A program made the translations under genes and the position numbers. A DNA stretch of 64,000 nt. Origin: Acidobacteriota bacterium. Lineage in GTDB: Bacteria > Acidobacteriota > UBA890 > WLXD01. Location: assembly GCA_965205505.1 (NCBI GenBank), contig CBDBHB010000008.1:128001-192000 (forward strand), in the 5' to 3' direction. This document shows, in pieces, positions 18,752-22,509 of this stretch (positions within the stretch are counted from its first letter, which is position 1; every line of letters starts with the position of its first letter). The notes below the pieces were generated by a model that made no database searches, had not been told where the DNA came from, and saw only the letters and a program-made list of their open reading frames with translations.

Positions 18752-19498
18752 TCAGTTGCTATGCGAGTACTCCGCGGGTGCGATTAACGATCCGATCGCC
18801 TCACCGCAGACTGCCCTCACGATATTACCGGATTCCCGCATGTTGAAGATCAGAATGGGGAGCTCGTTCTCCATACAGTGAGCAACGGCCGCTGAGTCCA
18901 TTACCCCGAGTCGACGGCTCAGCACTTCCTCGAACGTGGTCCGCTCGATCAGCTGCGCGCTCGGGTCACTGACTGGATCCGCGGTGAACACTCCGTCGAC
19001 CTTGGTGCCCTTCATCAATACATCGGCGCCCATCTCCAGCGCCCGCAGCGCGGCCGCCGTATCAGTAGAGAAATACGGGCTACCGGTGCCGGCCGCAAAG
19101 ATGACTACGCGACCCTTTTGTAGATGCCGCAGTGCCCGACGACGAATGAAGGGCTCGGCCACCTGGTCCATGCGCAGAGCGGACATGACACGGGTGTCGA
19201 GCCCTGTCTTCTCGAGGGCCTCCTGCAACGCCAAGCTGTTCATTACCGTTGCCAGCATGCCGATGTGGTCGGCGGTGACACGATCGATTCCGAGATCTTT
19301 GGCATTTATGCCCCGGAAGATATTCCCACCGCCGATGACGATGCCCATTTCGTCGCACGCTGAGCGCGCTTCGCGGATCTGCTCAGCGATGCTGTGGGCG
19401 ACCCGGTGATCGATTCCGTAGCCCACCGAGCCCATCAACACCTCGCCGGACAGTTTCAGAAGCACGCGGCGATACGCCGGCCGAGCGTCGTTGGTCAT
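18752..19498 (-). CDS. pyrH: UMP kinase
   Basis: LLKLSGE, GGGNIFRG, GMLATVMN, FSTDTAAALRA. Confidence 0.97.
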   Translation of the reverse strand: MTNDARPAYRRVLLKLSGEVLMGSVGYGIDHRVAHSIAEQIREARSACDEMGIVIGGGNIFRGINAKDLGIDRVTADHIGMLATVMNSLALQEALEKTGLDTRVMSALRMDQVAEPFIRRRALRHLQKGRVVIFAAGTGSPYFSTDTAAALRALEMGADVLMKGTKVDGVFTADPVSDPSAQLIERTTFEEVLSRRLGVMDSAAVAHCMENELPILIFNMRESGNIVRAVCGEAIGSLIAPAEYSHSN

Positions 19499-19589
19499 GC
19501 GACCCGCAAATCCCATCTGCGATAGGCAACGATCATCTGTTTACAGGCCACTTCTAAGAGAAGGCCTAGTTCGGTCAAGGGCAATGTGG

Positions 19590-19800
19590 TGCCCAGCGAA
19601 GAATCGATCTGCACGCCATGCTCCTATTCGCACTCTGGTGGACGAGGATTCAGGTCGTCCGGTGCATTCTGGGGTCCGTCCCGATTCGAGGCGCTGCAAT
19701 CTAGCTGCCGAGCTCGAAGCTCGTAGTGACCTTCGCAGTCGCCCGGACCGGGCGGTCAGATCGATAACCGTTGGGTCGCGTCGCCCTACCGACCTCCTGG
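19590..19800 (-). ncRNA. Candidate bridge/seekRNA of the IS110 element (boundaries approximate)
   Basis: Two stem-loop modules: CUGCGA-[9]-CGAGCU UCG AGCUCG-[9]-UUGCAG and UGCAC..GGACGA/UCGUCC..GUGCG. Confidence 0.6.
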
Positions 19801-19812
19801 TTGCGGGTTAGT

Positions 19813-20315
19813 TCATGCTGCTGAAACCTCTACAGGTGCGCGCAACGGTTCGTACTCGTCTCCACTCAGCCACAGTCGGTGCAGCACAACGGCGAGCTTA
19901 CGGGCGACAGCAACTGCTGCCTTTTTGTTGCCATGAGGACCACCGCGTCCGGCCAGCTTGAGCCCCCAGCGTCTGAGCTCAGTATCGGGCCCGAAGGGGC
20001 CCAGGATGTAATGCGCCGAGCCCACCAACAGGCGTCGGAGCATTTTGTCGCCCGCCTTGGTTATTCGTAGCGCAGGGTCCTTGTCCCCCGACTGCCGTTT
20101 CTTCGGTCTCAGTCCCAGGTACGGGCCCACGGCTCTGGAGGTATTGAACCGCTCCGGCTCCTCGAGCGTCAGCACATACGCCAGTGCGGTCAGAGCTCCG
20201 ACCCCGGCCACTTGCTGGAGCTGCTGTGTCTCCGGGTATCGCCCCTGGCACAGCTGCACGATCTGACGCTCGTATTGCTGGATGTTGCCCGTCAGCATGG
20301 CGATCGTTTCAAGCA
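19813..20315 (-). pseudogene. IS110 recombinase fragment lacking the N-terminal DEDD/RuvC domain
   Basis: VAGVGALTA, ERF, YLGLRPKKRQSG, RITKAGDKMLRRLL, KKAAVAVARKLA; predicted N-terminal codons are MITE-A sequence. Confidence 0.88.
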
Positions 20316-20380
20316 CTCCTTGCCTGCACTTCGCAAGACCCTGTCGCCAGACCCACCACACTTTCACCACGGCCTGCTAG
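20316..20380. repeat. MITE-A terminal fragment at the tsf stop
   Basis: CTCCTTGCCT..CAAGACCCTGTCGCCAGACCCACCACACTTTCACCACGGCCTGCTAG, matches 28721-28785. Confidence 0.9.
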
Positions 20381-21012
20381 TCGGAGCTGACAGCGTTGCT
20401 CACCGCCAAAGTGGCATCTGAATCACCAATCGCCAGCCGTGAGAAACGCCCAACGCGGATGTTCTCTCCAAGCTTCGTGACAGCGTCGGTGATCAGATCG
20501 GTGACCTTCTTGTCGGGCTCTTTGACGAAGCCCTGCTCGAGCAGGCACGTCTCGGCCAGGAACCGGTTGATCTTTCCGTCGACGATCTTGTCGATGATGT
20601 TGTCCGGCTTGCCTTCTGACACCGCCTGCTCACGGTACACCTGCCGTTCGGCTTCCAACGTCGTGGCATCGACCTCGTCGCGACCGATGTGCTTGGGGTT
20701 TGCTGCCGCCACGTGCATGGCCAGGTCGCGGGCGAGGGAAACGAATTCCTCGTTTCGTGCAACGAAGTCAGTCTCGCAGTTGAGCTCGAGCAACACCGCG
20801 ATCTTGCCTCCCATGTGCACGTATGTCTCGATGCGTCCCTCGGTCGCCGCGCGGCCGGCCTTTTTGGCGGCCTTCGCCTTGCCCATGGTGCGGAGAACCT
20901 TGATTGCCTCGTCGATATCTCCGTTCGCTTCCCGCAGCGCCTGCTTGCAATCCATGAAGCCGACGCCGGTGCGCTCTCTTAGTTCCTTGACGAGGATCGC
21001 ACTGATGTCCAT
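20377..21012 (-). CDS. tsf: Elongation factor Ts (short form)
   Basis: VKELRERTGVGFMDCK, ELNCETDFVA. Confidence 0.96.
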   Translation of the reverse strand: MDISAILVKELRERTGVGFMDCKQALREANGDIDEAIKVLRTMGKAKAAKKAGRAATEGRIETYVHMGGKIAVLLELNCETDFVARNEEFVSLARDLAMHVAAANPKHIGRDEVDATTLEAERQVYREQAVSEGKPDNIIDKIVDGKINRFLAETCLLEQGFVKEPDKKVTDLITDAVTKLGENIRVGRFSRLAIGDSDATLAVSNAVSSD

Positions 21013-21091: not shown

Positions 21092-22509
21092 TCAGGCCTC
21101 GTCGGTCGCCGACGCAGTCTCCGAGTCGGTGTCGGGCTCCTCCAGCGCGACGGCCTCAGCTGTCTTGTCGTCGGCCAGGCCTTCCTCCGCCAACGCAGCC
21201 GCCTCTTCTGCTGCGAGCTCGTCTCCCGCCTCTGCATCGTCGGACGCCGCCGCCTCCGACGAATCCGCTGCCTCGACTACCTCATCTGCGGCCTCAGTGA
21301 CCTCAGTGACCTCAGCGACCTCAGCGACCTCAGCGACCTCCGCGACCTCCGCGACCTCAGCGACCTCAGCGACCTCAGCGACCTCAGCGACCTCAGCGAC
21401 CTCAGCGACCTCAGCGACCTCAGCGACCTCAGCGACCTCAGCGACCTCAGCGACCTCAGCGACCTCAGCGACCTCCGCGACCTCCGCGACCTCCGCGACC
21501 TCCGCGACCTCAGCGACCTCAGCGACCTCAGCGACCTCAGCGACCTCAGCGACCTCAGCGACCTCAGCGACCTCCGCGACCTCCGCGACCTCCGCGACCT
21601 CCGCGACCTCCGCGACCTCCGCGACCTCAGCGCAGCGACCTCAGCGACCTCAGCGACCTCAGCGACCTCAGCGACCTCCGCGACCTCCGCGACCTCGACC
21701 TCCGCGACCTCAGCGACCTCAGCGACCTCAGCGACCTCAGCGACCTCAGCGACCTCAGCGACTTCCGCGACCCCAGCGACTTCCGCGACCTCAGCAGCTT
21801 CGACGACCTCATCGAGGGTGGCCTCATACGTGCCTCGACCCGCCAGGAGTGCATTCGACGCCGCCCCGCAGAACAGTCGGATCGCACGCAGGGCATCGTC
21901 ATTGCCCGGAACGACGAAGTCGATCCCGTCCGGATCGCAATTCGTATCAACGATCGCGACGACCGGGATCCCCAGCTTCAAAGCCTCATCGACCGCTATC
22001 CGCTCGCGCCGGATGTCCATCACGAAGACGACGTCGGGCAGGCCCCCCATGTGCTTGATTCCGACGAGGTTGCGGTCGAGCTTGAAGAGCTCACGCTTGA
22101 GCTTCAGCACCTCCTTCTTGGGCAGAAGATCGAAGCGCCCATCCTCCGCCATCGCCTCGAGATCCTTGTAGCGATCGATGCTCTTGCGGATCGTTTGATA
22201 GTTGGTGAGCAGCCCCCCGAGCCAGCGGTGGTTGACGTAGTACTGACCGCAGCGGGTCGCCTCCTCGGCGATGATCTCCTGAGCCTGACGCTTCGTACCG
22301 ACGAAGAGCACCTTGCCGCCCTGTGCCGCTTCCTGCTCGAGGAAGCTGAGCGCGTCCTTCCACGCCGCCTGGGTCTTCTGCAGGTCGATGATGTAGATAC
22401 CGTTCTTCTTCCCGAAGATGAATGGCTTCATCTTGGGATTCCAGCGCCCGGTCTGATGGCCGAAATGGACCCCGGCCTCGAGCAGCTGCCGCAGCGAAAC
22501 GCCGACCAC
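21092..22509 (-). CDS. rpsB: 30S ribosomal protein S2 with long repeat tail; frameshift near 21630 (as sequenced it stops at 21277)
   Basis: [31 protein letters not shown]; acidic tail resumes in another frame to TGA at 21092. Confidence 0.93.
21292..21795. repeat. 9-bp tandem repeat (GCGACCTCA/C), ~55 units, coding (EVA)n
   Basis: Directly visible; interrupted by a CAGCG duplication at 21628-21637. Confidence 0.97.

Follow-up and report, generated by a model that had tools for sequence, protein, structure and literature searches.

The window, that is the whole 64,000-nt stretch of DNA analysed here, displays on its minus strand the gene order rpsB, tsf (stop codon 20379–20377), an open frame (19813–20370), a 268-nt non-coding stretch, pyrH and frr, the pyrH start codon ATG being placed at 19498–19496 by comparison with a sister genome. 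PF02371 (E 2.6e-17) is the sole Pfam match of the open frame, which reaches 107 bits with NF033542, below the cut-off of 140. Between tsf and pyrH lies a truncated copy of an IS110-family insertion sequence (IS), whose features are collected in Table 1. It had been described as having lost its catalytic domain; the DEDD/RuvC-like domain is indeed gone, while the C-terminal domain with its SG motif remains. Only the right subterminal inverted repeat (sTIR) is kept. In the sister genome G018, whose pyrH is 93% identical, the tsf-pyrH spacer measures only ~40 nt and holds neither the IS nor the MITE-like part, and the insertion is therefore young.

Two further observations concern the neighbourhood. 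The MITE-like element has terminal inverted repeats of ~30 bp beginning CTAGCAGGCC, CTAG on both sides and at least nine copies; complete ones lie elsewhere (e.g. G000:C9:2991388-2991657), and the window copy is cut exactly where the IS fragment starts. In the 3' part of rpsB (21277–21700, minus strand), a 410-aa frame ends in 9-nt tandem repeats (GAGGTCGCT/G..), whose translation is a tail of over 100 residues resembling (AEV)n and which also keep long opposite-strand ORFs open.

Table 1. Position of the IS copy, its predicted RNA and adjoining features in the window
Feature	Position	Strand	Remarks
Right half of target, start of genus-wide repeat family (TGGCCTGTAA(A)CAGATGATCG...)	19502..19550	-	
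AG core dinucleotide, right junction	19551..19552	-	AG at both left and right junctions
5'-truncated IS copy, IS positions 641-1406 of 1406	19551..20316	-	without left end, without DEDD domain
Right sTIR GGCCTTCTC(T)T	19556..19566	-	base 19557 polymorphism common to 8 other copies
Predicted whole bridge/seekRNA, two-loop form, ~142 nt	19613..19754	-	closing stem, target-binding module, donor-binding module
Candidate donor-binding module	19621..19677	-	5' strand GGACCCCAGAAT (19677-19666), assignment tentative; stem GCAC/GTGC; 3' strand ATAGGAG (19627-19621)
Predicted target-binding module (module 1)	19694..19738	-	stem CTGCGA/TTGCAG, 9x9 internal loop, inner hairpin; stem invariant in 21/21 aligned sequences
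3' loop strand GCAGCTAGA	19700..19708	-	same sense as left flank (..CT) + core AG + A, first base of left end
5' loop strand AGGTCACTA	19724..19732	-	predicted to pair with TAG (core AG) and the adjoining right half-site TGGCCT, top strand; 9 nt, one G:U
Transposase remnant and stop codon	19813..20316	-	residues ~179-348, C-terminal Transposase_20 domain, RQSG motif
First ~64 nt of ~280-bp MITE-like element with CTAG ends	20317..20380	-	abuts truncation point, overlaps tsf stop codon

The full element and its insertion sites

The full element is 1406 bp long and consists of ~60 nt upstream of a 348-aa ORF, the ORF itself and a 262-nt non-coding end 3' of it. An intact copy (P0001) combines a DEDD domain (PF01548, E 1.1e-17) with a Transposase_20 domain (PF02371, E 5.7e-17), as expected for a recombinase of the IS1111 group, and scores 205.5 bits with the NCBIfam model NF033542, "IS110 family RNA-guided transposase" (cut-off 140). 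Its C-terminal domain carries the RQSG sequence (SG motif), and a PDB comparison matches this domain to the transposases of IS621 and ISCro4. The other IS1111-group traits are likewise present: a longer non-coding region downstream of tnp, 11-bp sTIRs (ATGAGAAGGCC / GGCCTTCTCAT) located 7–9 nt in from the ends and within the 7–17 bp of the group, and sequence-specific insertion at [C/T]TAG^TG[G/A]CCT with a shared core dinucleotide, AG, and without a long duplication of the target. The first-pass annotation had placed a bridge/seekRNA of the IS1111 group after the ORF, and this is where the non-coding end lies.

The genome contains 29 further near-identical copies of an 800-nt stretch of the element, and one partial copy. 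The window copy is identical to the consensus of 26 full copies at 765 of 766 positions, the sole difference being at 19557 in the right end. An uninterrupted frame of 348 residues is encoded at ten places, which amounts to ~10 intact transposase genes. Among the 26 aligned full-length copies nine are intact, one more diverged; the same 4-bp deletion, a frameshift near residue 90, is found in 12 copies at different loci and the same 1-bp deletion, near residue 134, in five, with one copy having both. The recurrence of these deletions at different loci, with 9/26 copies intact, suggests that defective copies are mobilised in trans or homogenised by gene conversion. The guide-loop module, which takes up the initial ~130 nt of the 3' non-coding region, shows no difference among the 30 aligned copies; three copies show changes elsewhere in the RNA, further downstream, two of them within the candidate donor module. 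A transposase query against four same-genus genomes gave no match. The sequence TTGAC(C/A) (19573–19578; TTGAC at 19578–19574) was noticed 5 nt ahead of the right sTIR and recurs in most relatives at about the same place; the conserved TTGAC is a possible -35 box of a circle-junction promoter; no circle-junction sequence was seen among the RNA-library contigs.

All 31 right ends abut TG[G/A]CCT, with right junctions reading GGCCTTCTCATAGAAG then TGGCCT (..TAGA-AG-TGGCCT). Left junctions consist of variable sequence, CTAG and ATGAGATGAGAAGGCC (..CT-AG-ATGAG): 26 of 28 left ends come after CTAG and one after TTAG, the remaining one carrying an additional ATGAG, so that [C/T]TAG is abutted in 27/28, while the six bases before CTAG nearly all differ (25 distinct among the 28). 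AG is shared by both junctions and is thus the core. The junctions alone cannot place TGGCCT, which could belong to the element or to its target, and it is the empty sites that assign it to the target and the boundary to between 19551 and 19550. The uninterrupted motif CTAGTG[G/A]CCT has 111 matches in the genome, corresponding to 108 distinct sites, when 13.5 are expected from composition. In 87 of these matches the next bases, GTAA.., lead into a repeat family; leftward of CTAG, each site has a unique sequence. We considered that palindromic empty sites might be double-counted and avoided by the IS, an idea dropped since only 3/108 sites are palindromic. In agreement with these data, the junction GAAG/TGGCCT proposed in the first-pass annotation is borne out by the empty sites, with ambiguity only in the shared AG, and the site predicted there from the loop, ..CTAG followed by TGACCT, is the one actually used for insertion, CTAG^TGGCCT.

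The target repeat family (CTAGTGGCCTGTAACAGATGATCG...) was also observed outside this genome, with dozens of copies (30–63 matches) in three of the four same-genus genomes searched; in G017 there are only 3 matches. It appears that the IS came in recently and took advantage of a repeat family older than itself.

Guide loops of the predicted RNA

The non-coding end folds into a stem, a 9x9 internal loop and a hairpin. On the minus strand, these are laid out as CTGCGA (19738–19733), AGGTCACTA (19732–19724), CGAGCT-TCG-AGCTCG (19723–19709), GCAGCTAGA (19708–19700) and TTGCAG (19699–19694), exactly the sequence and architecture first described. RNAfold recovers the arrangement whether given the 276-nt non-coding stretch or an excerpt of 148 nt; the folding energy, a weak point of the case, is unremarkable in either (z = -2.1 for 276 nt, with 4/200 shuffles equally good; z = -1.5 for 148 nt, 15/200). 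The flank AGTGGCCT (19552–19545) agrees with the reverse complement of the 5' loop strand at 7/8 positions, the mismatch being a G:U wobble, as had been noted. The hairpin and this flank match are more than chance, since the architecture is conserved in 21 aligned relatives and the loop strands prefer their own flanks (see below). As in bridge RNAs and seekRNAs, the two strands of the internal loop are complementary to opposite target strands and overlap at the core.

A covariance model (R1) was built from 21 relatives with the window sequence among them, and its score for 19613..19754 (107.5 bits, E 2e-30) is therefore partly circular. Sequences held out of the model scored 93.5 (L068), 80.0 (L063), 75.3 (L021) and 21.3 bits (L077). 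Across the own genome, R1 finds 31 copies of the RNA in all. It matched nothing in an IS110-family element from a Klebsiella plasmid (L079) and reached 9.2 bits (E 0.09) in one from a Sphingomonas plasmid, so that RNA homology to these plasmid elements is unsupported. A search of 19000–21000 against Rfam at E up to 10 returned two matches only, both irrelevant and with E > 5. The predicted target site of the 142-nt RNA is CTAGTGGCCT.

Relatives of the element were collected by genome searches at order and phylum level. The phylum search, covering 401 genomes, detected the transposase at E <= 1e-50 in 22 of them; a further related locus, L021, comes from a Myxococcota MAG and is the sole locus contributed by a related-locus search with a single protein. 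The transposases in the 22 genomes are 34–70% identical over the aligned segment (tblastn re-alignment). Conserved ends (AGATGGG-ATGAG.. on the left, ..CTCAT-[G/A]GAAG on the right) were found in 21 of the 28 loci examined, together with sTIRs of 11–16 bp, 3' non-coding ends of 258–457 nt and differing flanks. Within these non-coding ends the module recurs as ..GACTGCG, 5' strand, variable hairpin, 3' strand of 6 + 2 nt and A[T/G][T/G]GCAG. The 3' loop strand keeps a fixed layout of 6 + 2 nt, and the stretch in the 5' loop strand position complements the right flank of the element in question.

The structural alignment comprises 21 sequences, window included, and yields a consensus fold of 18 pairs formed by an outer stem, an invariant CTGC/GCAG stem, the inner hairpin base and a second stem, GCAC/GTGC. 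Seven of the 18 pairs are maintained through changes on both sides, and such compensatory changes affect both the inner hairpin base and the outer stem of the target-binding module. Paired cells amount to 95.2% versus 87.4% in shuffles, and the covariation score is 0.235 versus 0.098 (reached by 0/500 shuffles), with slid controls at or below 0.086. The fold is thus conserved among the relatives.

Covariation between guides and flanks was assessed in 17 elements treated as independent (34–67% transposase identity over the aligned segment), 16 of them with a left flank; the second copies L072, L074 and L076, and L055 from an unpublished genome (G166), had been left out beforehand. For the 5' strand, the mean run of pairing is 6.4 with the right flank of the same element and 4.1 with the flanks of other elements, and the 3' strand agrees with its own left flank at 4.56 of 6 positions, versus 1.94 of 6; neither value was reached in 20000 permutations (0/20000 each), figures that are optimistic as the relatives are phylogenetically non-independent, L054 and L056 for instance sharing a target type. 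The covariation of both strands with the insertion flanks, together with the empty sites, bears out the proposal that this is the target-binding loop. An earlier scan of guides against flanks over the whole non-coding region was too noisy (bottom-strand diagonal 7.2 versus 6.4 off-diagonal) and was replaced by this structure-anchored test.

Individual elements illustrate the point. G006 contains the closest relative (67% identity over the aligned C-terminal part), whose strands are CGGACTCTA / CCGAGTAG and whose flanks read ..GAGT-AG-AGTCCG, both loop strands being altered in step with its different site. Elements with an AA core carry TT / AA in their guides, a change matched in both strands. 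L069 is an exception, its 5' strand not matching its own right flank, and the core complement in the 5' strand is imperfect in L054, L058, L066, L067 and L073. Two loci showed peculiarities of another kind. In L068 (G268:C38) part of the element's 3' non-coding region is present a second time just beyond the right end, i.e. the element adjoins or sits inside another copy, and its target module has a variant stem. In G006 the transposase gene of the closest relative (L026 / L023, G006:C1:3908161-3911885) is split into residues 1–150 and 146–341 lying ~2.7 kb apart, presumably by an insertion.

In the element itself, the 3' loop strand matches the left flank only at CT and AG, and its four 5'-most bases, GCAG, are as a block absent from the left flanks. 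The constant part of these flanks is limited to CT and the core, the AG just before CTAG being weakly enriched. In an exploratory test of occupied versus empty sites at four positions, the guide base was enriched at -2 (A, 11/27 versus 12/111, Fisher p = 0.0007), weakly enriched at -1 (G, 10/27 versus 21/111, p = 0.07), showed no enrichment at -3 and was depleted at -4 (G, 3/27 versus 42/111, p = 0.01). The two loop strands had been read as together spelling GCAGC-TAG-TGACCT; on the left, this holds for CT and the core and fails for the GCAG block. The element appears to use a near one-sided reading of its target, with the core and 6 nt on the right and ~2–4 nt on the left.

Downstream of the target loop, a second loop is arranged as ..ACCCCA..ATGCAC, hairpin and ..GTGCG-[G/A]AT[G/A]GAAG. 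Its last seven bases equal the right terminus of the element in 17 of 19 parsed rows, AA-core elements included. In the element studied here they read ATAGGAG for a right terminus ATAGAAG, the one G-for-A difference being a G:T wobble on the bottom strand. Judged by these sequence matches, the second loop is probably the donor-binding loop, which would read the circle junction. We infer pairing of its 5' strand with the left end only tentatively, the hand alignment giving a poor, partial pairing at 3/6 positions.

Interpretation and alternatives

We consider, with a probability of about 0.9, that 19613–19754 on the minus strand encodes the bridge/seek RNA of an IS1111-group IS110-family element and that the hairpin is its target-binding loop for CTAG + TGGCCT. 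This reading draws on the anatomy, the copy number, the occupied and empty sites, and the structural and guide/flank covariation observed above; expression of the RNA, its binding by protein and the recombination chemistry are inferred. In the proposed mechanism, the 5' loop strand would pair with the top strand of T-AG-TGGCCT and the 3' loop strand with the bottom strand of ..CT-AG, the two overlapping on the AG core; insertion accordingly takes place between CTAG and TGGCCT, where an abundant repeat family begins, while the downstream internal loop with the right-end sequence of the element would probably read the donor (circle) junction. As for the window copy, a deletion fused the interior of the neighbouring MITE-like element to IS position 641, with loss of the left end and the RuvC-like domain. 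Any RNA made from it could load onto recombinase from the ~10 intact copies, adding nothing distinct.

The first-pass annotation had gone further and seen in the window copy an orphan RNA that survives its recombinase and may act in trans; extended, this would mean a retained guide RNA that read-through from tsf supplies to other copies. The fragment indeed lies in sense orientation between tsf and pyrH, inside the rpsB-tsf-pyrH-frr cluster, where read-through is plausible, trans action in this genome generally is suggested by the common 4-bp (12/26) and 1-bp (5/26) deletions at different loci, and orphan ssr9 copies beside ISPpu9 are described in PMC12288879. Retention is nevertheless quite unlikely. 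The RNA is hardly an orphan in a genome with 31 RNA copies and ~10 intact transposase genes; its gene equals the consensus and its guide loops are those of the other copies, so that it offers no new specificity and, as a young deletion derivative, nothing special in trans. Furthermore, the transposase remnant is preserved as well as the RNA. With one difference in 766 positions and a remnant equally intact, the truncation is recent and the RNA persists by recency, not by selection, which fits the short spacer of G018. Contigs from four metatranscriptome runs of one study (X1–X4) cover 19520–20316, including the non-coding end; they carry the variants of other copies, run into intact IS at 20316 and cannot show transcription, and in none of the four runs does a contig cross the junctions specific to the window copy, which is a recent and immobile remnant. 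One can still imagine that this dead copy yields, via read-through of the ribosomal-protein/EF-Ts operon, a constitutive, recombinase-independent bridge RNA which, uncoupled from a transient circle-junction promoter, would prime the ~10 recombinase genes and help to mobilise the 16 frameshifted copies in trans; we give this scenario an outside chance.

Another possibility is that the hairpin is the donor-binding loop, TGGCCT being the last six bases of the element and the loop reading the element's own ends. TGGCCT (or TGACCT) does follow GAAG in every copy, whatever stands further right, and CTAGA of the 3' strand equals the left junction. This was a first reading of the data, and the empty sites ruled it out: CTAGTG[G/A]CCT exists uninterrupted at 108 sites without any IS between its halves. 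Moreover, the corresponding bases in relatives vary with the flank of each element, and a separate downstream loop holds the conserved right-end sequence, which together make the donor assignment very unlikely. Finally, next to no weight goes to a host role of the hairpin, be it regulation or termination in the tsf-pyrH spacer, or to a generic REP-like palindrome matching the flank by chance. Its intergenic position between two housekeeping genes and the richness of this genome in palindromic repeats speak for such readings; against them, the hairpin lies inside an IS repeated in 31 copies, is absent from the orthologous spacer of G018, recurs after related transposase genes elsewhere in the phylum, where it is conserved and covaries, and has no T-run after it.

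Relation to known systems

The bridge/seekRNA reading places the element beside ISEc11, ISPa11 and ISKpn4 (Siddiquee et al. 2024, PMC11187229), with which it shares a non-coding region downstream of tnp and subterminal inverted repeats. In IS1111 seekRNAs, the segment complementary to the top strand lies 5' of the one complementary to the bottom strand and the two overlap in the target (PMC11187229); the strand order is the same here. The paper also reports RNAs of 154 nt and 82 nt for ISEc11; in size, our predicted two-module form (142 nt) comes near the former and module 1 (~80 nt) near the latter, a long (~150 nt) and a short (~80 nt) form being common to both. ISPa11, too, targets a REP. 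The target and the host phylum differ from those of ISEc11, ISPa11 and ISKpn4. Its transposase is a distant relative, at most 36% identical to any plasmid-borne IS110-family gene in PLSDB.

With IS621 (Durrant et al. 2024, PMC11208160; Hiraizumi et al. 2024), the element has in common a single RNA with the target loop followed by the donor loop (here a candidate), loops whose two strands read opposite DNA strands and share a dinucleotide core, and a recombinase made of a DEDD domain and a Tnp domain. IS621 belongs to the IS110 group: its RNA is encoded in the left end, before the ORF, its core is CT, and the strands of a loop come in the opposite order. Here, by contrast, the RNA is predicted after the ORF, AG forms the core and the sTIRs are longer. 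ISPpu9 of Pseudomonas putida is reported to have AG at both ends, one belonging to the target (PMC12288879), as does our element; in contrast, its bridge RNA is transcribed under the native Ptnp promoter in front of the tnp mRNA, upstream of tnp rather than downstream. We identified no counterpart here of Asr9 and Ssr9, the accessory sRNAs of ISPpu9 / ISPpu10, and phylum and target sequence differ as well.

Altogether, this is a well-supported but ordinary example of a mechanism that is already known, its "orphan" aspect being a recent deletion. It nonetheless provides a clean natural case of an IS1111-type bridge RNA for which the in-genome evidence is unusually complete, with 31 RNA copies and 108 empty target sites. 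Comparison with ~20 relatives that differ in target settles the register of the two guide strands, the 3' strand having 6 + 2 nt, the 5' strand being variable and the core being AG or AA. Tests of a further programmable recombinase could start from this element, which might also help to ask how much left-flank pairing such systems need.
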